Positions 1 to 47,369 of a stretch of 51,778 nt of DNA are shown in pieces (the first letter of the stretch is position 1; the number at the start of each line of letters is the position of its first letter). Position numbers and translations under genes: made by a program. Source of the DNA: Psammoneis japonica (Eukaryota). The stretch is from assembly GCA_008632985.1 (NCBI GenBank), contig QPGO01000025.1, forward strand, positions 620,001 to 671,778, read 5' to 3'. The notes beneath the pieces are model-generated. The model worked only from the letters and a program-made list of their open reading frames with translations. It was not told where the DNA came from and ran no database searches.

Positions 1-1890
1 TGAATGGCTCTTCTGCACCCAAGTTGAAGTCCTGCAGAAGCAGGGAGGCAAGACATGATCACATGAGTGCTTCATGACAAACATCAATTGTGCCTGCAAA
101 ATTGTCATCCGTGTGTCTCGTTGCACTTGCAGCATGGTCATTCACAACAAATGCAAAGACAAGATGAAGAAGCGACACCTCTCTTGCTGAGATGGAAACA
201 GTGTCTCTGGTCTTCAAGCAGCCATTGGGGTGGACTTTTCTCCTGTGTAGTTTCATCAGTGGTGTTGTGCTTGTTGCTTGCATCACTTGGGTTTGCATCT
301 TTGCCAGGAGCATTTTGTGTGTTGCTTGCATCACTTGGGTTCACACCTGAGCTGAAGCTGGGGTGCATTGTCATGGTGAAACCCACCCTCCACAATTTGA
401 AGATGCCACAGCAATGACCCTTCATTGAGTGCAGAATCCCCAAGTGTGAGTGCACAAGAAAGTTGAGGAATCAAAAAGGAAGCTGCACACAACAAGCCAA
501 ACCAAGTTCAATGATCTGTGCAAATGGAAGAAACAACAAAGACAGCAGGCCAAGAGATGCAAAAGCAGACAAGATGCTGCCAAAACCCTTGCCAAAAAAC
601 TGCCCAGGAAATGCTCATGCCCTGATTTGAGCTCCAGCACAAAGAGCGATTCTCTTGGCAATGGACTGTCAAGAGTGTCCCTGTCATGATGGGAGCAGCA
701 TGCACCATGACAAGCCCAACAGGAACCGCAATGAATGTGTTTTCACACTCATTTTCAAAGTGACAAATTTTGATGCTGACCCCACAATGTTTGGGAATCC
801 CTGCACAAGCAAGGGCCAGACTGGCCCCACGAGGCATGCCAACTCGTCCAATCCCGAATTGCTTGAGTTTGTCTTTGCTCAACTGACATGCTGTGGATGA
901 CATGTGCACGAGGGCAAGGAAAAAACTTAAGAAAGGTGCAACAATGCCACACTGGATGAAGGGTGCTTGAGCAGCACAGGTTGCATTTGTTTCCTTTGGT
1001 GCCACATTCCCCTGAGTCCTCTGGCATGGGCAGTGTTGACAGCGACCATGCTGTTGATGATGTGACATCTGTGCAACTCATGGGCTCAGGTGGGAGCATG
1101 CCATGCTGGGCAGTGCTCTTCTTTCTTCAAACCAGCATGTTGTGGGTCATGAACGAAGATCTCTGTGTTGCACTCAATGCAAATGAATCAGCAACTTTGA
1201 GACAGCTGTGCACGAAACACCTTTTGTCCTTGGTGACAAAATGAGCTGGGACAACAGAGCAGACATCTGCACAAATGTGCTGCACTGTCCTGGTTGAAGG
1301 TGCAGTCTTCATCACCTTCTGCAAATGCCCAAGCGATTGACAGACTGACAAAGTTGTGGCACAAGGCGACATTGCCCAACAAAGAAAGAATTTGTTCTGG
1401 ATGCACGCAGCATTCCATTTCCTGACCAGAGAAGTACATTCTGCCTCTCTTGGCTGCAATGGCTGCAACTGTCAGCCCTGATGTTCTTGCAGCCACATGA
1501 AGGACCCACAGCACCAAAGTGGCCTCAAAGAACTTTGAGGCATCCACGCCAAGAGAGAGAGTGCGCAAATGGGCCTCAAACAACTCGCAAGTCGGCACCA
1601 CTCCATCAAACTCATGGATCTCACAACTGTCCTCAAATGCATGGGCTTGCAACAAGACTGATGCAAATCCAGGCATCCCCTGAAACCACCAGCGCAGTTG
1701 GGTCCAAAGAGGCGCAAGAAGCTGAGTGAGCCCCAACTGGTTTTCTTGGCCTCTGTCAGTGAAGAATGGATCAACAGCAGCGTTTGCTTACAAAACCACA
1801 GAAAAACATCTTCAGTCCTGCTCCAAATGCTGCTTTGTAAGTCAGGAGAGGAAAGTGGTGAGCAGAGTCAAACCTCTCAGCTGTCTGGCA
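1..1890. mobile_element. Degenerate repeat/TE-derived block, strongly TpA- and CpG-depleted; family not identifiable
   Basis: Only a handful of TA dinucleotides in about 1.9 kb, with a CA/TG excess. ORFs are Tyr-poor and Cys/His-rich. Same composition as the block holding recognisable Copia elements at 38-45 kb. Short tandem duplication at about 270-345. Confidence 0.55.
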
Positions 1891-16567: not shown

Positions 16568-17877
16568 TGGTCTAAGTTGTTAAGACTTTCGGCAGCAACT
16601 TTACTTCCAACTTGACCTGGCGCCTGGCGGAAGCTTCAAGCGGCTTCGCAAGTCGCAAAACAAGGACCTGCGAACCAGAACCCGGAAACCCAAGCGGAAA
16701 AAACCGACGTTGGAGTTTCGGTCAGTGCTGTGACGAAATGTGATTCCGTATTCCATTAGGAGCACCGCTGGAAAGAAGGAACTTTGATTTTGAAATCCGT
16801 TTTCTCCCTCCAAACTCCACGAACCCGCGAAAACCGACATGCACCCGCCGATCACCGACCAAACGGAAGAACAGAACCCATGAAACCCAAAACGAAGCCA
16901 CCCTTGCATCATCCGCTTTCTCAACGACACACCGGCATTCACCTGGTGTGGTTCCCTTCACCATCGACCACCTGGCAGCCCCCCACTGCATTGCTCACCG
17001 CCTTCTCTCAGGGGCCAACCATGAACACCCCATCCCTGCCCTGTCAGCCCCACCCTGGAACACTGAATTCTCTTTCCAACATCCAGCTGCCCATGCTGCG
17101 TGCGCTCATGCCAAATCATCGCCGTCTGCCATCCTCCCTCTGCTGCCACACCACCGCTTGGCAAAACACATGCCCGCCGCACGCTTCGGCCTGCTGAACC
17201 ACCACACTTTTGCTCAATCACAATGGGGCCTTCAAAGCCTGAGCCTTGCAATTGCCAAATCGCTCGCTGACCAACACTGACCCAATGCTCCGCCAAATTG
17301 CAGCCCCAGCTCTCCAACCCACCCAACCCAAAACCCATCCCTTTTCCTGCCTGCATGATGACTCAGCAGCCATGAGAAAGTCAGGTTGTCTGGCCATGAC
17401 TCAGCGGTGGGAGGGTGGTGCAATCTCTGCTCCAGCTGGCTGCTCCACTCTCTCTCCAGTGTCCAGCCCACCAAGCACCTCACAGTTGAAGTAAAAACCT
17501 CAATTGAGGCAGTTTTTTGACCCCCCTCGATGAATCGACAAAACGTTCGTAGCCCTCAAGTGACATTAGAATGTTGTTCTCAATGCTTCAAAACCTCTTG
17601 AGGCAACAATCAGGCTCTTTGTTTGCTGTTGACCACACATTTTCTTCTTCACCTTGCAACAAGCACATGACATGAAACATGTGTTAAATGCAAGATGACA
17701 TGGTGGTTGAAATCTTGTCAAAAGGTTGTTGTGAATGTGATGGGCCACTTTTGCACCCCAAGTTTGTGGCCATTTTGTGGATCTCAAGATTCAAATTTGG
17801 TGCAAGTGAGTGCATTGCACATGCAAAGCAAAAGGTGTTGCGAGCATTGCAATGGCTTTGTTGTCATTGCAAAGACT

Positions 17878-18790
17878 GCAACCAACCAACCAAACCACTG
17901 AGAATTGAGGGCATTGAGGGTCTCACTTGGAACCAAAGGAACACTTTGAGAACAGTGGTTTGGCGCCATTGCAAGGCTCATCTGGTGCATTTGCAGCCAC
18001 CAGCAGTCACTTGATCCACGCCAGAGTGAGAGCTGAAACTCCTGACTCCAGAGTTAAAAGACACACTGATGCAACCAACCAACCAAACAACTGCAGGCTG
18101 AGGGGATTGAAGGTCACCAGTGGACCCCAGGGATCACTTTGAGAATGGTGGTGGAGTGTTGCAAGGTTCATCTGGCAAAGTTTCTCCCACCAGTCACTCA
18201 CAATCCATGCCAGAGTGAGAGATGAGACTCCTGACTCCAGAGTCAAATGACACACTGATGCAACCAAACAACACAACAGCTGCATGCTGAGGGCATTGAA
18301 GGTCTTCATGGGGCCCCAGGTGACACTTTGAAAATGGTGGTGGAGTGTTGCAAGGCTCATCTGGTGTGGTTGCTGCCACCACCAATCACTTGCAATCCAT
18401 GCCACTGGAGCAAGAGCTGCAAAACTCTCGTGACTCCAGAGTGAAAGGACACACTGACACAGCAAACCAACCCAACAACTGAAATCCAAGGACATTGAAG
18501 GTCTCCAGTGGAGCCAAGGAAACACTTTAAAATGTTGCTGGGGCATCAAACAAGAGCTCATCTGGTGCAGTTGCAGCCAACAGTCATTCAATCCATTCCA
18601 GAGTGAGACCTAAAACTGCTGAATCCAAAGTGAAAGAGGGCCCTGATGCAGCCATCCAACCCAGCAACTGCAGGCTGAGGGCATTGACAGTCTTCAGCAA
18701 AACTCATGGAACAGCTTGAGAAATGTGGTGGATTGTTGCAAGGCTTGCCAACAACCAACCCAACAACTGCATGCTGAGGGCATTAAAGAC
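17878..18790. repeat. Degenerate tandem array, unit about 190 bp, 4-5 copies
   Basis: Recurrent gcaaccaaccaa..aactgca.gctgagggcattgaaggtc...acactttga.aa...gcaaggctcatctgg...gactccagagt. Confidence 0.8.
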
Positions 18791-20059
18791 AAGTTCGGTG
18801 CCCTGCAGAAAACAGCAGATTTGAACAATGTTCCTCTTCCAAGCACACTTGTGGATGATGGTTTGCACAGCAGAGCAAAGATTCTCTTTTGCAAACCAGC
18901 CAGCAGAGCATTTTTTAATGCACGCAATGACACCCCAGCATGCGGTGCGAACCAAGCATTTGCCTTGCCCAAACCTTTTGCCATTGTGCTTTGTGCGTGT
19001 GCATGCAGCCCACATTCAGCCTTTGTGCTGCAACATTGCAATGAGACCGGTTTTGGTGCATTTTGTCAAATCAACCATTTTTTGAAACCATCAGCATTGG
19101 GGACAAAGGGTGGCCCACATCATGGCCAGATGACCTGACTTTCCCACAGCTTCATTTTGCTGTGATTTGTCGAGTGTTTGAAAAACAGCTTTTTCGATGT
19201 CAATGCCCACAAAAACATCCACAATGCCCACGCACATTGCCTGGCCTTGTTTGAGCCATTCTTTTTCATTTTTGTTCATTGAAGACATGGGTGTCACTTT
19301 GAGGAGGTTGACTGGCCAGGTGAGGCCCTTCTTGGTTTGGCAAGAAATGGTGCTGTGGTTTTGTGGCAATCGAGGGTCTTTTTGCTGGTGCCCTCCATTT
19401 CTGAGTGGAAAAACCCATGCTCTGATGTTCATTTGTTCCTGTTGCCTCCTCTGAGGATGTCCATTGCTGTCATTGACTGACCGCAGTCACAAAAAGTTTC
19501 CCCTGTCTTGGCCATGCTGTCGTTTGTCGGAAGCAATGCACTCAACGCCGATGTTTCAGCGCGCCATTGCTGTTCAGTGCTGACAATCCCACCAATCCAG
19601 TCAAGGTCTTCTGTGCAGCAGCATCCAAAACAAAAGATGAGTGAGCAGTCAGCCACCTGACCTCAGAGATGCAAGTGATGCATCTGGCATTTCTTCTTGT
19701 TGCACCTCTGTGGACCATTCCCTCATGTCATTTTTGGTGTGTTCTCTCAGCGAGTCAAAAGGCAAAAGTGCTTGTCATGCTTTCTCTTTGACTCATTTCA
19801 TTGCACACCTCAATGGCTCACACATTCACTTGAGACTGTGCGCAAATCATCCAGGGTGTTGACAAAGCAGCCAGCGCACAAGTGTGAGTGAATTGACTGC
19901 CGCAAAAATCAAGTTGGCTGCTGCTTTTGCTTTCTTTGTGCACGTTTTGGCTGCAGCGTGTCATTCCCATTGCTTTCTTTGTACAAAATTGGCTGTGACA
20001 TTTGCTGCAAATGACATGTCAATCATCCATTCAATGAAAACTGTGCAGACAGCAGGAGA

Positions 20060-20625
20060 GACCCGCCACCTCCGACAACAACGACTGAGTGTGTGTGGTG
20101 CATCAAAAAATGCAGTGTTCTGGCCTCTTGTGCTGCACCTCCAAGACCACAAATTGCAGCAGATCAGATGTGTGTCACGTCACAACAACCCAAAGAAATG
20201 ATGGATGCCCCATTTTGACATTCTGTGTTGCTTCTGGCCCCACGAGCGACCCGCCACCTCCGGCAACAATGACCAAGTGTGTCCAAAAAATGCAGTGTTC
20301 TGGCCAATTGCTGCACCTCCAAGACCACAAATTGCAGCAGATCAAATGTGTGTCTTGTCATGACAACTCAAATCAATGATGGATGCCCTGTTTTGACACT
20401 CTGCATCGTTTCCAGCCCCACAAGCGACCGGCAACTGCCGACCGAGAACCAAAGCGTGAAAAAAATGTGTTGTGTTCCGGCCTCTTGCTGCACCACCAAA
20501 ACCACATGTTGCAATGGCTCAAGCATGTGTCTTGTCATGACAACCCAAAGCAACACTGGATGCCCTGTTGCAGTTTTCTGCATCGTTTCCAGCCCCACAA
20601 GCAGCCGGCAACCAACGACCAGAGA
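20060..20625. repeat. Degenerate tandem array, unit about 178 bp, 3 copies
   Basis: Recurrent aaaaaatgcagtgttctggcc...gctgcacctccaagaccacaaattgcagcagatca...gatggatgccc...gccccac.agcgacc. Confidence 0.85.
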
Positions 20626-21436
20626 AAACAAAAAAAACCTCCACGTCCATCTGGGTGCCAAAGAAACACGAAACCTTTGAAAGATGCCAACAACAAAACA
20701 ACTGCACCACCAAACTCAGCACACTCGAACTGCCTTTCACCAATGTCTGACGCCAAAATGTCGTCCCTCTGATGGCTGGTTGATGAGTGGAGCCAAGTTT
20801 TGGAGACAAAAACAACCACACCCTGCCCACACAAATGCAAAAGAAACTCAAAAGCTTTTGAAGACACCAACAAAAACAAAACACCACTGTGCTCACCATG
20901 TTTGAATTACCTTGTGCCAATGCTCTTGCCGCTGCGACATTGTCCCAGTTGCGGGCAGGCACTCAACGCCTCCATTTGAACAAACACATGTCCAACGCTT
21001 TTGCTGTGATTCATTGAATGGCCAAACAAACAGCTTTCCGACGACAATGCCCACAAAAACATGCACAATGCCCACAATTCGCGAATCAATGCCCAAGCTC
21101 AACGCATTCTTGCTCTAATTGGGCAGGAACTCAACGCCTCCATTAAAATAAATGTGTGTCCATCGCTTGAAGCTACTGCAGCGCAGCGCAGCGCAGCAGC
21201 AAGTGCTGTAAGTAAGCAACGCAAGGTCCACCTTACTCCGCGTCTGTCCCCCCCCGCGCGCCACTACTAGCTGACGTTGCAGCACGTGAACCCCCATTTT
21301 CGCGTAACCTTACCCTTACCGCCAAAAAATCTCGCACCTCGCACCTCCCATTTTCACGGTTGTCTTGTTCTGAGGTCCACCGTATAAATACGATAAATAG
21401 CATTTGAAATCAACTCGGCAAGTGCGAACTGCAGCA

Positions 21437-25308: not shown

Positions 25309-26869
25309 CACCCCTGTGGTAGGGGGAGCTGTGTGTGTGTGCGTGGTTGTGCGCGCACGGCTTCTCCGTGCGTTGAGTTTTAATGTCAACATCCACACGA
25401 GTGTGTGCACTCCACAAGCAAAAATTCCTGTTCCACAGCTCCCCTGAAACTCCAACCACCAAAAACCGAGGGGTCGGAAGCGCACTTTTTGGAAGACAGC
25501 ACACACACCAAAAAAATCACGCGTTTTTGACGACTCGACCATGAGGATGCCTCGTGGTTCTTCCCCATCGCCTTCCCAGGACGCCGATCCTGCTGATGCC
25601 GTTGCCAGTGACACTGATGCAACAGGCAATGTCATCACTCCGGTTCTCGTGGGTGTGACACATGCAAAATAAGATGCTACAAACTCACACTGTTGTTTGC
25701 ACGCTCCACAGCCTCCCACAGATGCTGTCACGAATTCCAAAGCCACACCTGCGTTTCGGGCCCCTGGCATGTCCGACACTGTTGCTCCTGCCCTTGCTGC
25801 CGCAGGCGCTGTTGATGCTGTCATTGTCTTTTGCCAATGACATCCACAATGAAGTGCCAACGACTCACACTTCTTTCATTCTCACCCCACCGCCTCCCAC
25901 AGATGCTGTCACGAATTCCAACGCTGTGCCTGCGTTTCGGCCCCCTGGCATGCAAGATGCTGTTGATCCCACCCTTGAGGCAACATCATGGTCGAGTCGT
26001 CAAAACACGTGTTTTTTTGTGCGGAGAAAAAGAGCTCCCAGAAGTGCGCTTCCGACCCCTCGGTTTTTCGTGGTCAGAGTTTTAGGGGAGAATGTGGTTC
26101 AGGATTTTTCCTGTTGCCATTGGCACTTGTGTGCAAATGCACAAATGAATGTGAGGACATTTGCATGAAAACACAATGAATGAGATGCAAACTGCCACGT
26201 GACCATGACATCACCACATTCTCCCGGGCATGCCAGGGGGCCGAAACGCAGGCACGGCGTTGGAATTCGTGACAGCATCTGTGGGAGGCGGTGGGGTGAG
26301 AATGAAAGAAGTGTGAGTTGTTGGCACTTCATTGTGGATGTTGTTGGCAAAAGACAATGACAGTGTCAACAGCACCTGCGGCAGCAAGGGTGGGAGCAAC
26401 AGTGTTGGGCATGCCAGGGGCCCGAAACGCAGGTGCGGCTTTGGAATTCGTGACAGCATCTGTGGGAGGCTGTGGAGCGTGCAAACAACAGTGTGAGTTT
26501 GTGGCATCTTATTTTGCATGTGTCACACCCACGAGAACCGGAACAATGACATTGCCTGTTGTGTCAGTGTTGTCAGCAACGGCATCAGTAGGATCGGCGT
26601 CCTGGGAAGGCGATGGGGAAGAACCACGAGGCATCATCATGGTCGAGTCGTCAAAACGCGTGATGTTTTGGTTTGTGCGCTGTCTTCCAAAAAGTGCGCT
26701 TCCGACCCCTCGGTTTTTGGTGGTTAGAGTTTTAGGGGAGCTGTGGAATAGGAATTTTTACTTATGGAATATACACATTCGTGTGCATATTAACATTAAA
26801 ACTCAACGCACGGAGAAGCCGTGCGCGCACAACCACGCACACACACACAGCTCCCCTACCACAGGGGTG
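25309..26869. mobile_element. Non-autonomous foldback/MITE-like element; inverted arms of about 645 bp (25309-25953 and 26228-26869) around a spacer of about 274 bp
   Basis: Starts cacccctgtggtagggg and ends cccctaccacaggggtg; the arms align throughout. Each arm holds a direct repeat of about 60 bp (25711-25771 / 25892-25952). The spacer holds a third partial copy of the subterminal segment (about 25985-26090). Confidence 0.88.
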
Positions 26870-28787: not shown

Positions 28788-29103
28788 TGATCTCGATGAG
28801 ATTGTCTTGAGCTCATTTGGGGGGTGGAGCACTCAAGCAATGTTTGCCGAATTTACTCATCCGTTTCAACAACCAATGCATGACGCTGAGACCATCACTT
28901 TGGAAGTATCCCCTGCAATCCTCGATAAATGCTTCGCGTTCAATGTCGCGTCTGCCACGCAGGAGCATGAAGCGTTAGTGGAACCGGAGCATGAATCCCC
29001 ATCTCTAAGAAGGAACCGGAACAAGACAAACATGGTGGCTCGTCCTCAAATGGCAATGGCAATGACGACTCTGGAGTAAACGAAATTGTATAAAGAATGT
29101 GCA

Positions 29104-29285
29104 GACGCCATTTCATTCTCTGGCAGCCTGTTGTCTCTGTCCAAAACAAGCGGCGATGGGTAAGCAACAGCTTTCCCTCGGTCGGCCCATGATCAGCACG
29201 GTACGAAGTATTGCTTTCAACAGGATTCTCGGCACGTAGGTGGTATCATAGGCTTCTTTCAACGGATTTCCTTACTCGTCCCTGT
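29104..29285 (-). pseudogene. Diverged duplicate of the 3' end and downstream flank of the gene at 33146..34027
   Basis: gacgccatt...aaaacaagcggcgatggg...gaagtattgctttcaa.aggattctcg...ggtatcataggcttc...caacggatt...ctcgtccctg aligns with about 33081-33263. Confidence 0.85.
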
Positions 29286-33080: not shown

Positions 33081-33145
33081 GACGCCATTACATTTCTGTA
33101 AGCCTTTGTCTCTGTTAAAACAAGCGGCGATGGGGTTAGAAACAG

Positions 33146-34027
33146 CTATCCCTCTGTCGATCCATGATGAGCACCGCATGAAGTATTGCTTTCAAAAGGA
33201 TTCTCGCCGACCACATAGGCGGTATCATAGGCTTCAATCAACGGATTCCCTTTCTCGTCCCTGGCGACCATTTCATCCAACGAAGCAATTTTCTGGTCTA
33301 CGGTTGACGCTAATTCTGACATGGTCAGCTCGTACACCTTCTTTGATTTCCACACGGAGCAAAACAAAGCCAAGTCCTCGTTGATTACACCCGAGAGATA
33401 CAAGAGACAACTACTTTGTTGACGATAGACACTCCCTTGAGCCGCATCCATGCCTTTTGCATATTCTTCGGCCTGTCCTTGTTGCGTTTTAACTTGACGC
33501 AGTTGGAAATACAAGTCGTTCCTTGGGACAGTACTAAGGTCGAGCTGAAAGTCGCTTCCCATAATTTCATCGAATGAAAGCTTTGTAGCAAGATCCGGTG
33601 TGGGAAGTGACGAAACGTCTCCCACAGAATGCTTGGTTATAAATGCTCCAGGTGGTCCACTGATTCGATCCATGAAGCTTTGACGAATCGATGACAGTTT
33701 GCTCGCATCCTCGGCATCCTTCGGAAGGGAATCAAATAGCTCCCGGTCTGACCACACATGAAAGCCCAACAGGGCATTAGGATCCTGTTCACAGGCGCCA
33801 AACAGGTAGTGGATATAGCCAGGTTGCTGGCGATAAAATCGTCCCATGGTTGCTTCAAAGCCTTGCAGACATTCGTCGCGCATGCCTTCCTGAAATGGCA
33901 CCTTCATGCATCCAAAATAGACGGATGACGACGACATGCTGCTAGAAGTAGAAATGGCCACCGCCCTATTCGAAAAGAGATGACCGGAGAGTAGCGGTGC
34001 AGCAAGAAATCGTCTCACCAACGACAT
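33146..34027 (-). CDS. Protein with two ABM-like (dimeric alpha+beta barrel) domains and a possible mitochondrial presequence
   Basis: Internal repeat FYRQQPGYIHYLFG...LLGFHVWSDRE / VYRQQSSCLLYLSG...ALFCSVWKSKK. N-terminus MSLVRRFLAAPLLSG is R/S-rich and lacks acidic residues. Confidence 0.6.
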   Translation of the reverse strand: MSLVRRFLAAPLLSGHLFSNRAVAISTSSSMSSSSVYFGCMKVPFQEGMRDECLQGFEATMGRFYRQQPGYIHYLFGACEQDPNALLGFHVWSDRELFDSLPKDAEDASKLSSIRQSFMDRISGPPGAFITKHSVGDVSSLPTPDLATKLSFDEIMGSDFQLDLSTVPRNDLYFQLRQVKTQQGQAEEYAKGMDAAQGSVYRQQSSCLLYLSGVINEDLALFCSVWKSKKVYELTMSELASTVDQKIASLDEMVARDEKGNPLIEAYDTAYVVGENPFESNTSCGAHHGSTEG

Positions 34028-34235
34028 GCTCTGTTCTTCACATTGTCACGAACCAGAACGAAGAGGAAACCCACAACATCAACCTTCAACAATCAACGCG
34101 TTCGGGTGTGGTCTCGTGTGCTCTTCCCGGACCGCTTGTTCGTTTGTCTGCGGCGTGCATGCGCGCGATAGCGGAATGTTGCCAGTTTGAGTTTCAAGTT
34201 GCAAGAAAAAAACGACAAGCTAAAAGCAAGGCGCA

Positions 34236-36227
34236 ATGGTGCGTCGGATAGCATCATGCCGTTCCTGTCAACGTCGATATTGCAAAAACACATTGTCACC
34301 GTCAGACATCTGTAGCTCCTGTAAATCAGTCGTAGAGTCAAAAGATCCGTCTCTGGAATCTACCGCGACAACAGAAAACAATGACAATTCGACTGCTTCC
34401 GACACTGCTCAGAAATCAAAAAATGAGACATCGAACAACAGTAGCCCTGTGGTTTGCGCCGGTGAGAAGGATAATCAATCACTACAATCTAAGAACGACA
34501 ATATATGTCTAATTTGTGGTTCTTCTTTGGAGCACCTGCCATCGATGAAGAGCCGACTGGCCCATATCAAGCGTTGCTCGAAAAAGCACGGTGTTTCTGC
34601 GAGGAGTATGAAAGAGAATCAGGACGAAGAAGACTTCATAACCAAGGACGAGAACGATTCAACTCCAATTAGAAACGCATTACCAGTTAAGCGTCTTAAT
34701 GAGGTTGAAGCGTCTAATCCATACCAACAATCGAGCAAAGCAGATTGGCACGGTGATGCTTCAGCTCAACCTCAGCAACAGGCATCTTTGACCAAGTTTT
34801 TCCCAGCTCCAATCAAATCAGTCAATAACGTCTTACTAGCAGGAGCAAAACGAATGGCTAAAACTGCTCAGATTCAAAAGAAAAACAATGATAAGAAGCG
34901 TAAGCGACCCCACTTTCATCCCAGAATTTCGACAAAAGTGAGTCTCGGGCTTTCTCTATACGGAATTGCGTTGAAAATTGAAACCAATATCATCTTTTAC
35001 TAATTGTTTGTCTCACCCTTTTATAGGCATGCCCATCCTATAAGCGAATACCAGGAACTGATTTTGTCTGTGACGGCTTTGTGTATGCAAAAAGGTACAT
35101 AGGATTGATTTTTGTGTTTCTCGAGGAGACGTATCGCTTCTGCAAAGACACTAAAAGCACCCTTTTCTTTCTTTTTTGCTGTAAGCTCGTTGACTACTAA
35201 TTACTTCTTGACACATTTTCATTCGGATCATTACGGCGGCATAACGTCCAAATGGAACGCCGGGGTCATATATTGTTCCTTACCAACAGCCAACCTTGTT
35301 CATTCTCAGCTAGGCGTCGAGAAACGTTTCCTTCATCCCTTGCAACTCGATACGCCAACAGTGATTGAGAGCAATCAACGACCGGTTATTGTAACATTGA
35401 TGGATGCCAATCACTGCCCTGGAGCCGTCATGTTCCTTTTTGAGGTTGGGAAACGCCGTATCCTTCATGTCGGCGACTTTCGTTGGAACGCAAACATCAT
35501 GCTTAAGAATGCTGCATTGCGGATCTTTGTGGATGGCAGTGAAACTCGATTGGATGAACTGTTTCTTGATACGACCTATTGCAACGAAAAGTATACTCTT
35601 CCAACCCAGCAGGAGGCCATTCAAGCCGCCACTGAAATTGCAGAGAAGGAGCTTCTGAATCCAAAGGACAAAGTGCTTCTGCTTTTTGGTGCCTATACGA
35701 TTGGGAAGGAACGGATCTATTTGTCAATTGCCCAGCATTTGAGGACAAAGGTGTATGTTGATCAGCGGCGGCATCGTATCTTGTCGTCATTGAATTGGTC
35801 GAGGGATCAAATGTCCCTTTTGACCACTAACAAGACGGAAACCAATTTGTGGGTGGTTCCTCTCGGTCACATCAATTTCAAGAAAATGGAAGAGTATTAC
35901 CCGTGCAGTAACAAAGTCTTTGATCGTAAGACATTTGATCGGATCGTCGGGTTTCGACCGACTGGTTGGTCTCATACGGGGAACAGCAACAAGAATGGCA
36001 TAGTCCAAACGAGAAGAAGCGGCAACATGACAGTGCACGGCGTTCCTTATAGCGAGCATTCGAGTTTCCCAGAATTGGTGGATTGTATCGCCTGCCTCAA
36101 ACCAAAAAAGATTGTGCCAACTGTATCAGCATCGAAGAGCGAGGAACAAGTGGATTTGTTGACGAGAGGACTTCGGCAACGAGAGAAACTACTTCAGCAG
36201 CAAGCAATGTACCAACGTGCCACATGA
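34236..36227 (+). CDS. SNM1: DNA interstrand cross-link repair nuclease SNM1/PSO2 (DCLRE1A-like; MBL + beta-CASP, N-terminal zinc finger), 3 exons
   Basis: YFLTHFHSDHYGGI, DANHCPGAVMFLF, LHVGDFR, FLDTTY, YTIGKER, FRPTGW and VPYSEHSSF; zinc finger CLICG...HIKRC. Introns at about 34938-35027 and 35094-35185. Confidence 0.93.
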
Positions 36228-38386
36228 CAGCAGTAAAGCCGTTAGAGGTTTGTCTGCTTTTTTTAATTAGGTATGGTTGTCTAACAAACAAACACTGTAG
36301 CATCGGATGCTTTGGCGGGCCGGCATTTTTAACTTTGTGACCTGCGCGGCTAAGTAGCAGGCCCTGCGAGTGCTAGCTCTAGAGAGTAGAGAGGAGTACG
36401 TCGGGCTCTAACGCAGCGAGTGCCTCTCCCATCATGGCTGGGAGCGGCAAGCGAGGACACCGGTAGAAATAAATGCTACGGCAGGTAGACTAGCTCTAGC
36501 TGCACGCAGTTCTGGCGGTCTGCACGTCTGTCATCAAGTCGCTTCAAGAGGTTGTGCTTGCAGTGGAGATGTTCTCCGTTGACACTCGGTCACGACCCTT
36601 GTTTTTTAATCTGGGTGAGAGAAGGTTGATTGTTCCTTGCTTTGTTGCAGGCTCTGTTTATTCTGAGACAAGAAGGTGAGACCAGTGGAATTTGCTCCCT
36701 TTGTCAGAGAGTTGCATGTGACTTGTTCTTGCAGCTGGTGTTGTGTGTGGCAACGTCATTGTGATGTGGGCAGAAAGCAGCTGGCCTGATGGCTGTGACC
36801 AAATGGTGTGGAGAGAACACAAGCACGCAGCCATGTGACATGGAACTTTCTAGAGCAAACATGGACTTGGGTGGCCTCTCTGGTTCGCGCACTTTGCCCG
36901 TGCATTGGGTGGGTGCTGCGCGGGCGGCACACGGTCTCGCCACCAGCCATCCCATTGCATCAGTCAGCCATGCAACCCTGTTTCTGCAGCACCTTTTCTG
37001 CATGGAATTTGCAGTGTGGGGAACATGCTGACTGTGCAAAAAAGTGCAAACATGTCCTCACAAATGTGTTTTGCTGAGCAGGTGCCAGTCATTTTTTTAA
37101 TCGGGTTTTTTCAACAGCTTGCTCACTTGTTGTTGCAGATGGCAGCAGCTGTGCCACCTGATGCTGACTTGGCATCAACTGCTTGCAGTGTGGGCTTGGT
37201 GGCTCAGCATGCATGGGTTGTCAACAATGAAAGATTCATTGCATCAGAGCCTCGGCATCCACCAGTGCTGACCATGCTGCCACGCAAGTGGCCACGCATC
37301 TTGCAGCTCATGCAAACAAAACAAGATGTGCTGGCCTTGGCACTGTTCAGATTGAAAGGATTCAGGTTTTGGCACCCCACTTTGGCCACAGCTCTTCTTG
37401 TTTTGCACTTGTGGCAAGAGAAGAGATTGGATGTTTTTCACTTTGTTGCAGGCTCTGTTTTTGTTCATCCAGAAAGACAGCATGAGACAACCAGTGGAAA
37501 AATCTGCTTGGAGGGTTGTGCACAACTGCTTGCAACCAGCAGACCTCCCAAGCTGGGAGTGGCTCATGACCAAAGTTGTGTTGTCCTGAGTGCAAGTGCA
37601 GCTGCAACAGCTGAGAGTTGGACAAAGAGGAAGACAGCTGCAGTGCAGTGGCAGTCAACAGGTCTGCGACAACTGTGAGATCATCAACCCAGAGTTCAAG
37701 CAATTGTTGGCATCAGATGCACTGGCTGCCCAAACACATGGTTGGCAGAGGCACACATGCACACATGTGCTCACATCAGCACACACACCTTGTTCACTGG
37801 ATCCTTTCAAACTTGTGCTGGTGGCTTCAGCAGGCATTTGCAGCAAAAGGTCAGATTGGGCAACTCAGCGCTGTCCAGCCCCACAGCTGGGATGCATTTG
37901 GGGTGAAAACCTTGTTCCTGCAAGAAGCCCATTTGACCCACCCTGTTGGAACATTCAGATCATGGGGATCCCAAGGAACCCAGATGCACTGATGGAAGAG
38001 CATCTTTGGTTGCTGACATCACATTTTGGTGACTGTTCTTTGAGGATTTTTCTCTGTTGTCAACCCCTCTTGATTGCGTTTTGATGTCACTCTTTTGAGT
38101 GATTCATCTGGCTCATCAATCTGTTTGATCTGTTGGTTTCAACAAGTGCCTGAGTTGTTGTCATTGCAAGTTTGAAGTTGCAACACAGTGAACTTCCAGG
38201 CAAACCACAGCCAACCAAGCAGCCAGGGCAAGCATGACAAGCAGCACAGGAAGCTTTGTAAGATTCCCTTTTGGCAGCATTAACTTGCCAGTTCAACATT
38301 TTCACTCAGAAGAATCATTGGTGCCATTGGAAGGCTTGTCACCCACTGAGCTGCCATCAAGCAAAGACTGCACAGCTGCACAATGA

Positions 38387-41300
38387 GTGGCAGAGGAAGA
38401 GGTTCAGGTGGAAGAGACCAAGGAAGAGGAAGTGGCTGAGGCAGAAGTGACAGGAGTCACAGGTCAGATCAGAAGAAGATTGCCTTTTAACAAAACAAGC
38501 TTTCAGCCTGAGATGATCCACCCTTCATTGCTGAACAGCAATTCTTGTGATGCAACATTTGAAGAGGACATTGATGAGAAGCTTGAGCACTTGACACAGA
38601 AAAAATGCAAGCAAGGTGTCCACCTGACAAAGTCCATGGAGGAGAAAATGGAGTGCATGGATTTTAGCTCTGAGAAGCCCACATTGAAGAGCTTGTCAAT
38701 TGCCCAACCAAAAGACAACCGCAAGATGGCCAAGAAAGAGCAAGAAGAAAAAGCACTCAAGTGCAAGCACAGAGTTGAGCTCAGTGACTGCCACAGATGG
38801 TTGAAACAGCTCAAAGAGTGCAAGACTGCCACAGTTGCCAAGATTTTAGACAACTCCTGCACCAAGCAACACAATCAGTCCCTGACATTGAACTCCATGA
38901 GAGGTTGACATCTGTTCCACATGCTCACTGAGGCCATGAAGAACATCCTGCAAGTGAGACAGCAAGAGAATGAGTCATCAAATGACTGTCTGTCAGGGTT
39001 CAAAATCAATGAGATGCCACAAGAGAGGTGCTGGGAAAGGAGATGCTAAATGAATTCATTTCCAATGCTGCAGAATTCAAAGATGCCAGCACAAGCAAAC
39101 AAGACAAAATGAAGGATGCAACATTTGACACATGGATGACTCACCTGTTCATAGATGACAGTGACAACTGCTGTCACAAGAGCCTGAAAAAGAGCTTTGT
39201 GAGAGACTGCAGTCTCAGACGGAATGTGCACCCAAAGACTCTAGACAGGGTGTGATGGATGTGCCGCTGAACCGTCCATTGGACAATGACCCCAAGAACC
39301 ACCACAAGAGAAGAAGAACAACAAATGAAGAGATGAGAAGGGCAACGATGATGAGAGCAGCAGGTCTGACAATGCAAAGGACCAGGGTCATGCCCAGAAG
39401 AGCAGCAACAGTGACACAACGTCATGCCACTGCTGTGGTGAACCAAATCCCAGTCCCCCAATGCAAGCACAAGAACAACATTGCGTTCAATGACTGGTTC
39501 AAGAACACTGGAAGAAAACCAGGTGCCAGGAGGGCAGAGCCATGCACAAGCTTGAGGTGGCAATGAAGACCACTCATTGGTTGGAAGCAATGACACAAGC
39601 ACTGACACCACCAGATCTACCCAGTCAACATGTTCCACCCAAAGCAGAGGAACAGTGGACTGGATCACAGCTGGTTGATGTCAAACCAGACATGAGCACA
39701 AGCCAAGCTGACACAGGCATCAAGGGCAACAAAATTGTCCTTGACAATGGTTCAACCCTCAGCATGGCAGCAAGCTGGAAGTTGGTGCACAACATGCAAC
39801 TGGCAAAGACCAAGATTGATTTGTCCATGAATGCAGGAGTGGATGCCCTGGACAAGGACTGTGCCATGTGTGGATGGGGGGGGNGGGGGGGGGGTGCATG
39901 AAGCTCAGATCAAAGGATGCAACAGCAAATGTCCTGAGTCTAAAGGATGTGACAAGCAGACACTGTGCAACATGCAACAACAGAGTGCCAGATGAGCTCT
40001 GGCTGCTGAACAAGAAGACTGGCAAACAAGAAGCAGAGTTCAAGGTCATTGACATTAGACTGCATGCACTCATGCTGAGCCAGCAATTCTTTGACTGCAT
40101 CAAAGGACTCCAAGAGAATGAGTCACATGCAAGCATGTTGTCAAAGAAGAAGACAAAAAAGAAGCAAAAACATGGCACAAAGTGCAGGAGCGCATCCAGA
40201 ACTGTGGCTCTGACTGTGGAACAGAACTCCAAGGGCTGCTCCAAGAGGGAGGCAGCAAATGCCAAGTGAGTGTTCAGGCTGTGTTGCAAGGCTGAAACAC
40301 CCAGTGCAAGAGAGTTCAAATGATTTTTGCACACTCTGATCAGGTGAAGAATCTGTCCATTGCACCAGACGATGTTGACAGAATGGTGGCCATTTGGGGT
40401 CCACCTGTTGACATGTTGAAGGGCAAGACCAAGTGTGCGCATCTTTCCCATGAGAGGAACAACATGACAGCCATCCCACCTGAGATTTGTGAGAAGTAAA
40501 GAGAAGGCATGATCCTCTGCATTGACATCATGGAAGCATGCAGAGCCAAGCCACAGCACACAATTGACATGACAATCAAGTGCCAATCAAATGAGAGACT
40601 GATGAAGCACAATGAGCATGCTGATGTGTGCATCACACTGGACATGACTCTCTGACAGCACAACATGGCACTGTTCAAGATTGGCTCTGTTGAGAGTGAT
40701 CACAAATTCAAGGCTGTGCTGGCCAAAGCAGCAGATGGCATGAGTTTGGAATTGCTGGATGTCAACACTGGCAACCATGTTCTAGAAGTGAGGTGGAGCA
40801 TTGAGACCATCAAGGAGTGAACCTGCACCACTGCACACCACCCGCCATGCAAAATGACACCCAAGGTGATGTGCAAGCATGTTGTGATCAAGAATGCTGT
40901 CATGTCAAACATGCACCCACAGAAGGAGGGGTTCTCCAATGCATGCAGTCCATGCACCATCATGCAGCAAAGGAACCTCAACTGCAACAAGCCCTTTGAG
41001 TTTAAATTTGGAAATTGAGAACAACCCTGCCAGTGCAATGGACACATGCAGTGTTGACAGCGTGCATCTGCAACCATGGTTTGCTTGCCCAAGGGTTGTC
41101 ACTACACTGTGAACCTGCACACAGCAAAGCTTCTGAACCCCCTCCCCCCATGAGTGCACCACAGCCCCACTGACTGAAACACACATCCAAACAGCCAAGA
41201 AGATGGCATCCTCCCAAGGCATTGAAGACTTCAAGTTCACAGGGAAGTGCAGTTATGATCTCTGTGATGCTGGTTGGAGCAACTGCAGGAGTGGGCAATG

Positions 41301-43430
41301 AAGGCAACAGCAAAGACAGTGACAGCAACAGCAAAAGCAAAGGCAAAAAATGCACAAGATGAAAGTGACACGAAAGTTGTCACTGATGAAAAGTCAGATG
41401 ACAAGGAATGCAAAAATGACTCAGATGAAGAGTGCAAAAAAGCAAATGATGCATTGGCTCCTGACAAAAGTTTCAGCCCCATTCACCAACAGAAAAACCA
41501 AGTGTCAGATGAAAAAGACTGCAAAGAACAAGATGGAAGACAAGGGATGGTGATGATCTGCCAGAAGATGACACAGAACCCCAAGAAGATGCTGGGTGGG
41601 ATGCCAGGATGCACAACACAAGGTGGAAAGTGCTTCAACACCACACCATGGGTCAGAGCACCCACCAAGAGACAATCCAAGAGCAAGACAGTTTGATTTG
41701 CAGGAGTGCTGGGAAGCACACCAAAGAGAAGCACAAGCAAAACATCATTGAGTGCTGTCACCACTTGTGAGCCAATGTGAGCCAAATTTGGAGGATGACA
41801 TTGAGTGCAACGTGCAAGCCAGAAAGTTCATTGCACAATTTGTGTGTGAGATCAATGACCAAGTGCAAGCAAGGAAGGATGTTTCCTTTGCCCAGAAACA
41901 CCTGCCACTCAAGGGCCTCAAAGCATTTGGCCAGAAGGGGCATGGTGCCTCAGCAAAGGAAGTTGAACAACTGCACAACCAAGTGTGCTTTGCACCAACA
42001 TCAGCAGAGGACATGACTCTGAGCAAAAGGCCCAAAGCCATGACAGCCTTGGTGCTCCTGACAAAAAAACAAGATTGTCGAATGATGGGTGCACACGATT
42101 TACAATGGGAAATCAACCAGAGAATGGCTTGACAAGAATCAGTCAGCAGCCCAATGGCATCATTGGAAGGAGTGCCAATGACAGCCATTGTCAATGCCAC
42201 AGAAGAGCATGACACAATGAGCACACATGCTCTGAGTGCATTCACTCAGATGTTGATGCCAGAGCCTGAGCAAGGTGAGGACCGGATCACAGTGAAGATC
42301 AGGAGCATTGGCAGACATGTTGGTGAACATCAATCCCAACCTGTGCTGACCACATGTGGTCATGGAAAAGAGGAAGAGAGTCCTCTGCACCCAAGTCATC
42401 AGCGCTGTTCATGGTGTGTTGGTTGCAGCTCCATTGTGGCATGAGAAATTTTGCAAAGACTTGAGAAGATTGGTTTGAATTCAACCTGCACAATCCATGC
42501 ATTGCCAACTGGCAAACAGTCAATGTGGCGAGCAGCACACAATGCATTTCCATGTGGACAACCTGATGTTGAGCCACATCAACCAAAAAGTGAAGAACAA
42601 TGAGTTCCCAAGCTGGCTGAACAAGATGTGCAGAAGTCATGGCAAGGTCATGGCAACCCAAGGGGAAAAGCATGACTGCATTGGAATGCCCCTGGATTGC
42701 ACTGCTGAGGGCAAGGTGAAGGGGGCAGGTTGACATGATCAAGCACTTGCAAAAGATGATTGATGAGTTCCTGCAAAGGATCAAGAGTGTGGATGTCATG
42801 ATGACACCAGCAGGACACAACATGTTTGATGCCAGTGGCACGAGGCAGCCAACCAAGAAAGCAGAGACATTCCACACATGGGTGGCCAAAGGACCATTTG
42901 CTTCCAAGAAAGGCCACATGGATGTGGCCACCCACTGTTGCAGCATTGTGCATGAGAGTCAGAGAGCCCGCCAACAAGGATTGGGGAAGTTGGTCCATTG
43001 TGTCAAGCACCTGAACTGGATGCCCAATGACGTTGCTGCTCTGAGTGCAGAGATGACCTCCCAGCAACAAAGTGGTGCATGGATGCATTGTTTGCTGTGC
43101 ACCCAGAATTTACAATCCACTCAGGAGGAGCCATGACAATGGGCAATGGAGCAGTTCAAGCCATGTTGAGGAGGCAGAAGCTCAACACCCAAAGCAGTGC
43201 TGAAGCTGAGCTCATTGAGTTGATGATGCAATGACCATGATCCCATGGATGAAGCCATTCATGGAGCACCAGGGGCACCCACTTGACAACAATGTCCTGC
43301 ATCATGACAACAAGACTGCCACTCGGCATTTCTTTGTTGCCAATCAGACTGAAAAGGGCAACCTTAGAGTGCAGCATTGCCCAACCAACAACATGTTGCA
43401 AGAAGACTTCATGACAAAGCCATGGAAAAA
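38387..43430 (+). mobile_element. Degenerate Ty1/Copia (CoDi-like) LTR retrotransposon internal region (gag-PR-IN-RT-RH)
   Basis: Protease IVLDNGSTLS; integrase-like NHVLEVRWSIETIKE; RT LKGLKAFGQKG...EVEQLH, FHVDNLMLSH...HDCIGMPLDC; RNase H QKLNTQSSAEAELI, LHHDNK, RHFFVANQ...QHCPTNNM.EDFMTKP. Domain order PR-IN-RT-RH matches Copia. LTRs not resolved. Confidence 0.88.
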
Positions 43431-43439
43431 TTGGTCATT

Positions 43440-45050
43440 CCATGCCAGAGTGAAACTCAGACCACTGGCAGCACTTGGCAAAGCTGATGCTGTGCTCTCA
43501 ACAGAGCTCAGTTCAGCATCAACATCAAGCACCATTGCAGACCTTCAGCAAGGCTCCAAGCACACAAAAACAATGCCATCTCCTGATGCAGTCCAGTGCT
43601 CAACTTCCTTGGGCAAGCTTCCCAGCTCAGGCCAGCAGCCTGAGCTCAGAGGCAAGAAAGCTTCTGTTCCAAGGAACTTTCTGGCTTTCTTCAGCTCAAC
43701 TTGAACATCTGCAACTGGCCTCTTGACACACAAGGTGCAGGGCATTGCCTGGTGTGTCTTGCTGCTGCCCAAGTCTGACAGAGCTGTGTGCCATGCAAAC
43801 ATGCAATCCTCAACTGCCTTTGGGTCATGTGATGGATGCATGAAAGGTCATCTGCACACAGCTGCATGATGCTGCATCCAACAGTGCTTGAAGCCACCTG
43901 GCTTTGTTGCCTTCTTTAAAACCCAGATTCCTTGATCTGCCATGTGTGGCTCAAAACTGGTGGTGTTGTGAAGAGCAGCTTGTCAACTGTCTTAAACTCT
44001 GTTTCCCAAGCTCCAGGTGTGCATCAAGTGTGGCAATTCTTCTCAGTGGGCACTCAGACATGCTCCAAGCACTGATGCTCAGAACATCCAAGTCATTTGC
44101 AGTGGCAGCAGCAGCAAGCACAATCCTTCTTGTGCTGTCATGTGGCACAACACCTGAGCAAGGGGTGGACTCCTTTGGTGGATCATTTTGATGCCCTCCA
44201 GCAATGAACCACGCTTTGTGCTGAAACTCACTTCTGACATCAAGTGCTGTGCAACAATTGATGACATGCTGCTTCCACCCCCCAACTGGCACCATGTTGC
44301 CATTGGAAAACTCAAAGGCTGCCGTTGAATGTTGTGCTTTCTTTTCATTGGCCTTCATCCAACAATCAGCCCCTGTGCTGGCACCAACCTTGCAAAAGTG
44401 CTCTTGACACCTTTGGGAGCTCAACTTGAGAACTTGTGTGTGCTTTTTCACTTTCATCAGGGTCTGGGTGTGGCATCTTGCAATGCCATGCACCCAGCAA
44501 TTGAATGCTGGCACCCTTGCCATCTTGTTTGGAACAGCAAGCTTGGCAATCTCAGCTGGATTTGACTCGGTTGTTCAGGTTTGACAAAGGTGCTGACAAA
44601 GTTGTGCCACCTCTCTGCCACCACCCCTCAGATGAAAAGGCCATCCAGTGGTGGCAGTCTTCCTTGGAACCTTCTGTTGCCATGTTCAGCATTGATGTGC
44701 TCATCATCAGCATTGACAGCACAGCCCAAGTGCTGCATCAGCAACCCATGATCTCCTTCATGATCTGACAAATGTTTTGCCTTTGGCCAGCTTGGGTTTT
44801 CCATCTGACACCAAGGATTGGGGCACATGCTGACTCTGCAAATGTGGGCCACAACCACTTCCAGCAGACAATGCTCTTTTGATTTCCAAAGGTGGAAATG
44901 ATCATGACCACCATGTCCATCAGCAAAAATGCCACAAGAACAAGTCTTCTTGCCACAAATTGATTTGACCTTAAAACATGTTTGGTTGTTGGCTTGAGAG
45001 CATCAGATCAAGCTCTTCAAGTGTTGTCCCCTGCCTCAGATCAGCAATCA
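43440..45050 (-). mobile_element. Second degenerate Copia (different CoDi-like lineage), partial IN-RT, convergent with the first
   Basis: PAFNCWV...AFEFSNGNMVPVG...DVRSEFQHKAWFIAGGHQNDPPKEST..GVV..DS..I...ANDLDVL; RT catalytic remnant LCADDLSCI / SHDPKAV. Confidence 0.8.
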
Positions 45051-47369
45051 CAGCAAAACCTTGCACAGGAGCAGTGCAGCTCCACATGTGAAGCCATTGT
45101 GTCCACAACAAGTTGAAAAAGCTGTGAAGGCATTAGAGCCCAGTTGCTTGAGCAACTCATGTGTTTGCCAACAATCACAATGCAATGCTTGTTGCAAAAA
45201 ATGACCAGCCAGCAAGGCACCATTGCGCCAGCACCAGTGCCCATTCCAGGCTTCCAAGCAGGTTGTCCATGCACCAAGGTCAACAGCTCTGATGAAGTGA
45301 GCAAGCATGGCTGGCTCAGCTGAGAATCAGACAAAAAGAAGTCCTGCAGAGAGCAGTGCAGCACAACAACAAACAGGTTCTGCATTGTGCAGCTGTGGCA
45401 GTGGCTGCCAATCTGGTTGGACCAGCTGTTGGCTGCAAATGTGCACATTGCGCAAACACAGCTGGCATGCTTTCACACACACAAGTGTTTGTGTCAAGTG
45501 CACATGCACTTGCTCATTCCAACAAGGGAGCCATCCACAACTGCCACCCAAATGAGTTGTTTCACCAAATTTTGGAAAAGGCTTTGTGCTCCTGCTTGGG
45601 AAAAGATGCAAAATGGTGGTGCCACAGGCATGCAAAGACTTTGTTGCACCAAAGATGAAACAAGTTGCTGCCCTTGTTGGCAGCAAATGTGAGGTGTTTA
45701 AAACTTGCAACCTGAGCTTTCTTGGCTTGTGTCAAAGAGTTAACATGAGAGGCAGGAGGCCCGCTTTGGCACCATGTCAATGTGCAGATTAACTCACAGG
45801 CTTTTACATCCCTCCACTTCTGTGTGACTTTTTAGCATCTTAAGACCCACCCGCCAAGGCATTGTGGCCATGTCTTTTTGTGCAAAGTGCATGTGCAGTG
45901 CCAAAGTTTGAGTGCCATGCTGTGGAGCCATCACATGCTCATAGATCAAGATGTCAAAGTGTGCATTTTAAGTTTGTGCCTGAGAGCAGAAAGCACCCAG
46001 CCGGGAAAAAATCCCACCCTGCAGGGCTCTTTTTTTCATCGCAGGGTGCCCAGCAAGTGATGAGCACCTGCATCACATGCAGAATCCTGTGTGCACTGGC
46101 AGCCCTTTGGCTGCAGCTCTCTGACAGCTTAAAAAACACAAACAAACAAACAAACAAACACAATGAAGACAGCCATGAGCTGCTCTTCTCATGCCTCTTC
46201 TGGCAGTGAGATTGGCCTCTGCACTGGATGAAGACAGCAGTGCTGTCTGCCTGACATCTTCCAAAGAAGTGCCCACTGCTGGCACAAGCACAAGCAACAA
46301 GTGGTGGCAACAGAGCTGCTGTTGTCCCCAAGGTTGTCACACCATCAATGAAGGGTGTTCTTGATGCCACTGCATCAAAAGATGCTGGAGCATGGGCAGC
46401 TCCAAAGCTGCATTGGTGGGCTTCTTGCATGCCAAGTTGGCGCCCATTTTTGTCAAAAACAAAAGAGCCACTGCACACTGCATTTCTGTGAGTTTGTGCT
46501 TCAGTTTCCAGGCCTTTGAAAAGGCAGCTGGTGAGCATTGTTGTCATGCCTGAATTTGCACTTGTTTGTGTTTTTCCAGTGCCAAAATCCAACTTGTCAT
46601 GAGGTCTCAAGTTGCAATCTGGTGCACTTCAAAGGAGAGAGTGGTGTTTCACAGAAGATTGAAAATGACACTTCTTGCTCTGCAGAGCTGCACAATGAAC
46701 CCAACTCACAAGAGCCAACATCACCAGAAATGCATGAGACTGAAAAAGGAGTGGAAAACAGAGTGGAGTTGCTCAAGCACTTTTGAGTCTCCAGCTCAAA
46801 GGCACCCTTCAAGACAAAAAGGTGCAGCTTGGATGCAGCACAAATGTTGCAGCATGGACCAAGTTCTGATCCATCTGAACATGAACCACAAGGGCACATT
46901 GCATGTGCGCTCAAAATCAAAACTAAAACCCACAATCTCAAACTGTTTACAGGCTCTCAAATTGGCTGCCTGAGCCCATGTCTCACATTCCTGTGTCACT
47001 TCTTGTCAGTTTCAAAGATGCGCTCTGTCTCTTCAAAATCACAACAGTCAAGTCCTTCCCTGCTGAGGGCTTTGATTGTTCGCTCATTGAACTCCATGTT
47101 GGTCCCACGCTTTGTTACAACAAGAGCTTGTTCGAGAAATGGCGGCTTCATGGTTTTATTTTATGCGCGACTAATTTGTTAGTCGACAGTGCCCCGGCTA
47201 GGGCCCTAAGTTATTTCCAATCCCAACTGGGAGGTCTTGGTTATTTCTTGCTGTTCCGCCTGCCTGCTGTCGTCTCGCAAGCCAAATCAATGTCACTGAA
47301 GCTTTGGTTTGAGGGGACCAAGAAGTGCTGTAGCAGCATCACATAACAGGAACAAAAATTGACACTCAA

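Follow-up and report, generated by a model that had tools for sequence, protein, structure and literature searches.

A dedicated mutational process has almost certainly reshaped the repeats of a diatom genome: after their integration, A:T>G:C transitions confined to the dinucleotide TpA have accumulated on both strands. Its traces are found in a stretch of 51,778 nucleotides of the Psammoneis japonica assembly (G000:C26:620001-671778; the assembly, G000, is eukaryotic and comprises 91.4 Mb in 597 contigs), henceforth the window, in which TpA is nearly erased from several blocks (Table 1), the largest of them holding a decayed Ty1/Copia retrotransposon with long terminal repeats (LTRs). In young Copia copies from the same assembly, TpA followed by a pyrimidine (TAY) is hit ~3.5 times as often as TpA followed by a purine (TAR). 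A further A at position +2 lowers the rate ~2.5-fold. What matters is the sequence 3' of each adenine, where a pyrimidine marks the target and a purine, above all a run of A (TAAA), protects. As a rule, TpA survives only where a purine stands 3' of both adenines (YTAR), 10 of the 33 survivors in the interval considered first being mixed. The named homologues of the window's reverse transcriptase (RT), and of the ADAT2 and editase genes discussed below, are from diatoms (Cylindrotheca, Skeletonema, Thalassiosira, Seminavis, Fistulifera and others).

Surviving TpA and the flank rule

According to the dinucleotide table, the gene-bearing DNA of the window has an observed/expected ratio (o/e) of ~0.55 for TpA and ~1.0 for CpG. 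Two-state segmentation sets apart four blocks (starting at 1, 16603, 36498 and 50277) in which TpA o/e is mostly <0.1, CpG is low and CA/TG stands at ~1.8-1.9, and a fifth (25382-26724) that has lost TpA and retained CpG. The interval 38280-46960 (8681 bases), on which the original prediction was based, holds 33 TpA, against ~354 expected at genic density. These survivors fall into the tetramers TTAA (12), CTAA/TTAG (9), GTAA/TTAC (5), CTAG (2), CTAC/GTAG (2), ATAG/CTAT (2) and ATAA/TTAT (1); GTAC, ATAC/GTAT and ATAT are each absent. The prediction that they lie mostly in TTA or TAA, and often in TTAA, is borne out, with 27/33 (468/1256 in genic DNA; Fisher p 4e-7) and 12/33 (47/1256), respectively. 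The separation is sharper when both flanks are considered: YTAR accounts for 23/33 survivors and 227/1256 genic TpA (p 2.5e-10), RTAY for 0/33 and 373/1256, also a significant departure. When flanks are drawn from the 2125 YR steps of the region itself (200,000 draws), the mean counts are 8.1 for YTAR, 2.5 for TTAA, 15.5 for TTA/TAA and 8.5 for RTAY; the observed counts depart from each at p < 1e-4. The residual motifs that had been quoted are all present, eight of eight at 38-46 kb, displaced by at most 2 nt, and four of four at 17-21 kb. The claim that TA lacking both a 5' T and a 3' A is nearly absent stands for the RTAY class and goes too far otherwise, as six of the 33 survivors lack both.

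The same skew is seen in a genome sample of 19 stretches of 10 kb, in which 151/380 sample windows are depleted of TpA and 214 are normal; the sample was taken from large contigs only, so that the implied 40% is a rough figure. Survivors in the depleted sample windows comprise 157 YTAR, 109 mixed and 10 RTAY sites, compared with 772, 2317 and 1390 in the normal ones. A fit to 320 old windows depleted of both TpA and CpG, in which 413 TpA remain of 6699 expected and non-depleted DNA serves as a stand-in for the true ancestor, yields hits per adenine of 0.29 for TAA (bootstrap 0.22-0.36), 1.26 for TAG, 2.44 for TAC and 3.02 for TAT. In this DNA, a base other than A at +2 raises the rate 2.2-2.6x (log-likelihood gain 88.6).

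The idea that T/A flanks as such protect a TpA fared less well. TTTAAA (34 observed, 23.5 expected) and CTTAAA (42 observed, 39.6 expected) are practically untouched in the old windows, in agreement with it. A/T-rich flanks are nevertheless not protective per se, because ATAA/TTAT/ATAT survive worse (34/1320 expected; 0.026) than the GC-flanked CTAG (31/375; 0.083); GTAC survives at 2/748. Depletion leaves GC content unchanged (0.477 vs 0.473), and AA and TT have the same o/e in depleted as in normal DNA. Survival of NTAN thus depends on context whether it is normalized to non-depleted DNA or to a copy of the same element that has taken few hits, and a uniform survival does not describe the data.

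Direction, timing and targets

The direction of change can be read from four copies of one Copia family, 91-93% identical, on contigs C160, C27, C107 and C16, of which C160 is lightly hit and serves as reference. Its TpA sites read CA or TG in the other three copies at 143/186, 153/184 and 164/185 positions, and changed TA sites end as CA or TG almost without exception (109/110, 121/124, 129/131). At 100 sites where C160 has TA and the other three all have CA or TG, the three disagree with one another at 57, which indicates independent one-step changes from TA and argues against CA>TA changes in C160. Protein conservation gives the same polarity: 17 tyrosine columns are conserved in 120 outside homologues, and the 14 that are covered are almost wholly His or Cys in seven depleted copies, while 118/120 outside homologues have fewer than three such replacements. 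The window copy retains none of the 14 tyrosines, and 12 of them read His or Cys. The direction TA to CA/TG therefore follows both from the disagreement of copies over CA and TG and from the fate of conserved tyrosines.

In the three heavily hit copies, TpA is changed at 77-89% of sites, compared with 0.2-1.5% A>G at AA (1/550, 5/555, 5/556), GA (3/595, 3/596, 4/597) and CA (1/587, 4/589, 9/594); simple arithmetic on these site counts puts the TpA rate at ~130-210x that of other A>G changes per adenine. The reverse change, TG>TA, occurs at 0/602, 1/604 and 0/603 sites, hits on T in TT, TC and TG do not exceed background, and transversions are not raised. A competing-risk fit gives relative rates of 1 for TAA, 1.15 for TAG, 3.4 for TAT and 3.6 for TAC with a strand ratio of 1.01; each of the ~185 sites enters it three times, once per copy, and it is trusted to +1 only, since sites are reused and the flanks of the two strands are confounded. 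C160 is itself hit at 70/250 inferred sites, and these early hits follow the same order of 3' bases (C 29/148, T 25/146, G 9/95, A 7/111). The dose of hits ranges from 28 to 92% per copy. The TpA that survive are ancestral in 43/44, 31/32 and 21/22 cases (95/98 in total) and not newly made; survivors are thus original TpA in the least favoured contexts, YTAR and above all TTTAAA and YTAAA.

Whether a dedicated mutator is needed at all may be asked, as CpG loss accompanies TpA loss in old blocks and two Pol eta-like genes exist in the assembly: errors of Pol eta during repair of deaminated CpG, GC-biased conversion, selection, or repeat-induced point mutation (RIP) acting on the TA-rich copy might have the same effect. 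This seems very improbable. The WA signature of Pol eta consists of A>G at both AA and TA, and it was rejected on the finding that AA>G is at background and AA and TT o/e do not differ between depleted and normal DNA. Discordant CA/TG outcomes together with Tyr>His/Cys replacements rule out CA>TA in the TA-rich copy. Moreover, TpA is lost earlier than CpG and to a far greater extent (83-92% vs 17-22% in three heavily hit copies); CpG is kept in 33/151 TpA-depleted sample windows and lacking in 0/214 TpA-normal ones; and hits in the young copies show no link to the distance to a CpG or to a lost CpG. CpG decay affects the same DNA separately and more slowly, independently of TpA loss.

The changes took place in chromosomal DNA. 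An element inserts with identical LTRs; those of the C107 element (intact target duplication GTGCC) now differ at 43 columns and those of the C16 element (intact target duplication CATCC) at 33, mostly at YR steps, including eight and nine CA-versus-TG switches, respectively, at TA-derived sites. Processive single-strand tracts were considered and rejected, since runs tests on the young Copia copies detected no strand runs of hits and adjacent hits fall on the same strand in 15/23, 81/146, 80/158 and 88/166 cases. A nucleosome-scale periodicity of hits was not detected at 61-500 nt; three copies show short-range correlations of 0.17-0.23, which a common context may explain.

The targets are not restricted to one type of repeat. 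Other loci matching Copia are TpA-depleted in 27 of 28 cases, gene-bearing segments are normal, and some depleted blocks contain no identified element. Tandem arrays are hit as well, and the units of those in the window's second block are distinguished from each other by CA/TG switches. A repeated segment on C297 and C301 that bears a C5-methyltransferase is hit too. This segment (C297, ~4-9 and 37-40 kb; C301, ~31-39 kb; loci L123-L125, L129, L153 and L154) occurs in at least three copies, TpA-erased but rich in CpG, that are 91-96% identical between the contigs; its other open reading frames (ORFs) match no Pfam family, and it is probably a mobile element bearing a DNA methyltransferase (DNMT).

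A non-coding inverted-repeat family (window copy at 25.3-26.9 kb) is informative on targeting. Seventeen arms of this family carry 2-25 non-YR differences from a reference arm, and their CA/TG concordance does not exceed 0.58 in any group, the arm interiors having been hit independently. In the outer ~130 bp there are 10 TpA sites, all of which are kept in 8/17 arms and mostly lost in 9/17; in the window element, the right arm keeps 10/10 and the left arm 1/10. Retention at the arm ends correlates with how dense TpA is in the flank (Spearman 0.55, p 0.02). Since an identical high-copy sequence can escape, this suggests that the process follows the edge of a chromatin domain more than it senses homology; two of the 17 arms break the flank-density rule and speak against it. 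A duplicate in gene-bearing DNA (29065-29284 and 33042-33263; 83% identical) keeps its TpA. Together with the repeat at 22982-23288, these are old local duplicates, 80-83% identical, with TpA retained.

The apparent haplotig C397 (element at 4942-6445) differs from the window at 11 of 24,927 aligned columns and, next to these, at 37 of 5,657, mostly in the inverted-repeat element and including several TA/CA, TA/TG and CA/TG switches. The differences are suggestive of recent activity, on which nothing is built here, since conversion between copies or misassembly of the arms could produce them.

An artefact of long-read assembly is an unlikely cause of the depleted block, because contigs from one public short-read run cover 35000-48500 evenly (30/30 bins) with four single-base differences, all at YR steps; this run may itself be a source of the assembly.

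Table 1. Features of the window (positions in the 51,778-nucleotide stretch)
Feature	Position	Strand	Remarks
TpA-/CpG-depleted block	36498..47115	.	38 TpA and 61 CpG in 10.6 kb; CA/TG ~1.9x expected; two-state segmentation, dinucleotide table
Interval of the survivor analysis	38280..46960	.	33 TpA left: 23 YTAR, 10 mixed, 0 RTAY
Decayed Ty1/Copia LTR retrotransposon	38000..43500 (approximate limits)	+	polyprotein matches 40078-43440; RT ~41764-43052
Second, different Copia-type RT fragment	43954..44571	-	three tested relatives have RVT_2
Second depleted block	16603..21115	.	13 TpA; tandem arrays 17877-18745 (189-bp unit) and 20104-20602 (177-bp unit)
Non-coding inverted-repeat element	25309..26869	.	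many genomic copies; TpA lost, CpG kept
Depleted block, element type not identified	1..1788	.	3 TpA, 22 CpG; two-state segmentation
Depleted block at contig end	50277..51777	.	13 TpA; two-state segmentation
Host gene, DNA-repair metallo-beta-lactamase, between blocks	34224-36227	+	
Host gene, RING protein, between blocks	13438-14595	-	
Host gene, N-terminal methyltransferase, between blocks	21401-22270	+	

The polyprotein of the window's Copia relic is interrupted by frameshifts and stops, and RVT_2 was found on a related copy; the ORFs of the other depleted blocks, including 1..1788, gave no Pfam match above cut-off. Within the relic, a run of ~20 G (39876-39896) contains the single N of the window and may be a polypurine or a low-quality tract.

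Candidate chemistries and enzymes

That the pattern reflects an enzyme preference and not drift, as had been proposed, is confirmed insofar as the mutator is specific; the enzyme behind it is an interpretation, and the signature itself is silent on whether A or T is the modified base. Deamination of adenine would be the simplest one-step route. An enzyme of the TadA/ADAT fold may deaminate the A of TpA in silenced repeats, a proposal on which the balance is about even. The following sequence of events can be envisaged: a host deaminase would be drawn to repeats by their silenced chromatin and not by homology per se; the A of TpA would be deaminated in DNA, and on replication C would be placed opposite the resulting hypoxanthine; stacking of purines on the 3' side may impede the flipping out of that A, which would leave TAR sites, and TAAA most of all, as survivors. 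Editors derived from TadA are most active on an A that has T before it and C after it, and less so on one followed by A (PMC8989541), and the authors of a preprint on the chlorarachniophyte Bigelowiella natans put forward the same chemistry with ADAT2 as the enzyme (bioRxiv 10.64898/2026.01.13.699255).

The assembly contains several candidates. A predicted ADAT2 gene with the HAE and PC..C motifs lies on C26 at ~119.7-120.6 kb; in addition, there are a TadA-like gene and two A_deamin genes, one ADAT1-like, as we presume from its motifs, and one resembling an ADAR-type editase. Endonuclease V is present, and an MPG/AAG-family glycosylase gave no match in the assembly, where the control matched in 4/14 cases.

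Several points weigh against this reading. (i) TpA is palindromic, so that a preference for TAY on A is the same as one for RTA on T. (ii) The deaminases of the assembly are ordinary, diatom-wide genes, and no expanded deaminase or deaminase fused to a chromatin reader appeared among them. (iii) The Asn that nominated the B. natans ADAT2 is present in 29/29 homologues covering the site and hence does not discriminate. (iv) The 5' T preference of TadA editors amounts to only 25-52% (PMC8989541), compared with >100-fold here, and amphioxus ADAT2, for which activity on A in DNA has been shown, favours GAA and deaminates C as well (PMC10354150). (v) The two fits of the flank rule carry the reuse of sites and the substitute ancestor described above. 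(vi) A Pol iota-like gene is present, which opens a different route.

In this different route, a repeat-guided nick or one-base gap at TpA would be filled by a Pol iota-like polymerase placing G opposite T. The gene (G000:C22:252628-253293, minus strand; L238) has human Pol iota as its best solved match (E 5e-23; kappa 3e-12, eta 2e-11), an assignment by best hit, and is one of five Y-family loci in the assembly, the others matching best Rev1, Pol kappa and, in two cases, Pol eta. Human Pol iota puts G opposite T more often than A (PMC3031609) and is distributive (PMC4995076), which fits the absence of strand runs. Transversions, on the other hand, are not raised, and as T in TT, TC and TG is at background, a separate nicking or excision activity specific for TpA would be needed, for which no example is known. 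Targeted error-prone filling is thus unlikely, though it retains some weight.

The symmetry of the data would be accommodated equally well if the thymine of R-T-A were the modified base, e.g. oxidized or alkylated to 5-formyluracil or O4-alkyl-T in silenced repeats and mispairing with G. T-modifying TET/JBP enzymes occur in other protists, and the assembly is rich in pyrimidine-modifying machinery, with ~15 C5-methyltransferase loci, among them one linked to a chromodomain and some borne by repeats. No enzyme is known to modify thymine with such specificity, and Tet_JBP gave no match in the assembly, a weak negative as the control was silent too; the explanation is regarded as doubtful. The C5-methyltransferase loci are represented by 27 PF00145 matches, more than described for P. 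tricornutum, and the chromodomain-linked enzyme is encoded on C34 (L126). A further ORF (G000:C79:87315-88790, minus strand; L113) fuses a cytidine/dCMP-deaminase-fold domain to DIOX_N and a 2-oxoglutarate-Fe(II) oxygenase domain.

An ADAR-like editase acting on the DNA strand of RNA:DNA hybrids, formed by repeat transcripts or small RNAs, is improbable. The second A_deamin gene (C79, ~344.2-345.9 kb, plus strand; L236) encodes a second editase of the ADAR/ADAT1 type, is conserved in named diatoms and has human ADAR2 as its best solved match; inspection of its frames by eye revealed no evident RNA-binding domain. ADARs do edit DNA in hybrids and favour a 5' T, but their best site is TAG (94%), and AAG (81%) and CAC (53%) are edited as well (PMC5389660), whereas here TAG is among the slowest and AA and CA are spared; a preference for TAG is also described elsewhere (PMC10661471). 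Exact strand symmetry would, in addition, require hybrids on both strands.

Occurrence, significance and comparison with known systems

Beyond this genome, the TpA process seems to be present but much weaker or rarer. Among 80 metagenome loci with related RTs, 78 have a whole-locus TpA o/e of at least 0.4, and five have at least three conserved tyrosines as His or Cys (L230, 8; L213, 6; L215, 6; L222, 5; L185, 3). These five, from other samples, also have locally low TpA; the flanks of 17 TpA in five depleted metagenome windows (YTAR 4/17, p 0.5; RTAY 2/17, p 0.12) are too few to be decisive. The search patterns favour intact elements, matching 4/31 of the genome's own copies, three of those TpA-erased. 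A search of viral contigs found no relative, and a literature search that covered few subscription journals found no report of TpA hypermutation in diatoms.

A process described in a single chlorarachniophyte preprint would thus extend to a second supergroup and act there on transposons to saturation. Its quantitative signature (T-A-Y over T-A-R, TAAA nearly immune) is new relative to the main text of that preprint and can be used to screen candidate enzymes. A natural enzyme that edits chromosomal A only after T would, if real, be relevant to the design of base editors and to how mutational genome defence originated. The most far-reaching interpretation can be held only tentatively and is more probably wrong than right: a chromatin-guided adenine editor strict for 5'-T-A-Y would serve as a defence running in the direction opposite to RIP, would have rewritten a large share of the genome, would act in other carriers of diatom-type Copia elements, and would be homologous to the B. 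natans system, both belonging to an old system spread across the stramenopile-alveolate-rhizarian (SAR) group. In practical terms, repeat ages and protein searches are distorted (Tyr to His or Cys). Because GC content and open frames are preserved, screens based on GC or RIP indices overlook the depleted blocks: A>G and T>C cannot turn a sense codon into a stop, so that reading frames remain open even as codons for Tyr, Ile, Leu and Val change.

RIP of filamentous fungi is a dinucleotide-specific C:G>T:A mutation of repeats, mainly CpA>TpA, that is premeiotic, triggered by homology and dependent on RID/DNMT4. The diatom process shares with it dinucleotide-specific transitions in chromosomal repeats after insertion, on both strands and near saturation; it differs in running in the opposite direction, from TA to CA/TG (TG>TA at most 1/604 in heavily hit copies), and in that a high-copy sequence may be wholly spared at element ends. 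A survey of diatom DNMTs lists a RID-related DNMT4 whose function is not known, and its accessible text does not mention TpA (PMC9998398).

Hypermutation by APOBEC3 and ADAR, the deamination-type defences against retroelements, has RNA or pre-integration cDNA as its substrate and shows a strand bias. Mobile elements as targets and a signature in the neighbouring base are common to both, in contrast to the strand ratio of 1.01, the divergence of LTR pairs after insertion and the hits in non-retro repeats seen here; the order TAG 1.15, TAT 3.4, TAC 3.6 further departs from the preference of ADAR (PMC5389660). TadA editors likewise produce A>G in DNA with 5' T and 3' C favoured and 3' A disfavoured, but are engineered, need a single-stranded bubble and obey a far looser 5' rule (PMC8989541); amphioxus ADAT2 is set apart by its GAA preference and its activity on C (PMC10354150).

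The closest counterpart is the TpA hypermutation of integrated viral DNA in B. natans, which comprises only A>G/T>C at TpA on both strands, proceeds at a ~1000-fold rate and is active in only some clonal lines (bioRxiv 10.64898/2026.01.13.699255). In the diatom, the targets are LTR retrotransposons, an inverted-repeat element and tandem arrays; TpA o/e is 0.04, i.e. near saturation, compared with 0.45 in the viral region of B. natans. The hits in 151/380 sample windows, the concurrent CpG decay and the measured flank rule go beyond that system, the main text of the preprint containing no mention of trinucleotide, context, flank, diatom or CpG. Both processes restrict A>G/T>C changes to TpA on both strands of chromosomal DNA, are aimed at foreign or mobile DNA and leave TpA-poor, CpA/TpG-rich blocks behind; in each of these features the diatom process agrees with B. 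natans TpA hypermutation.

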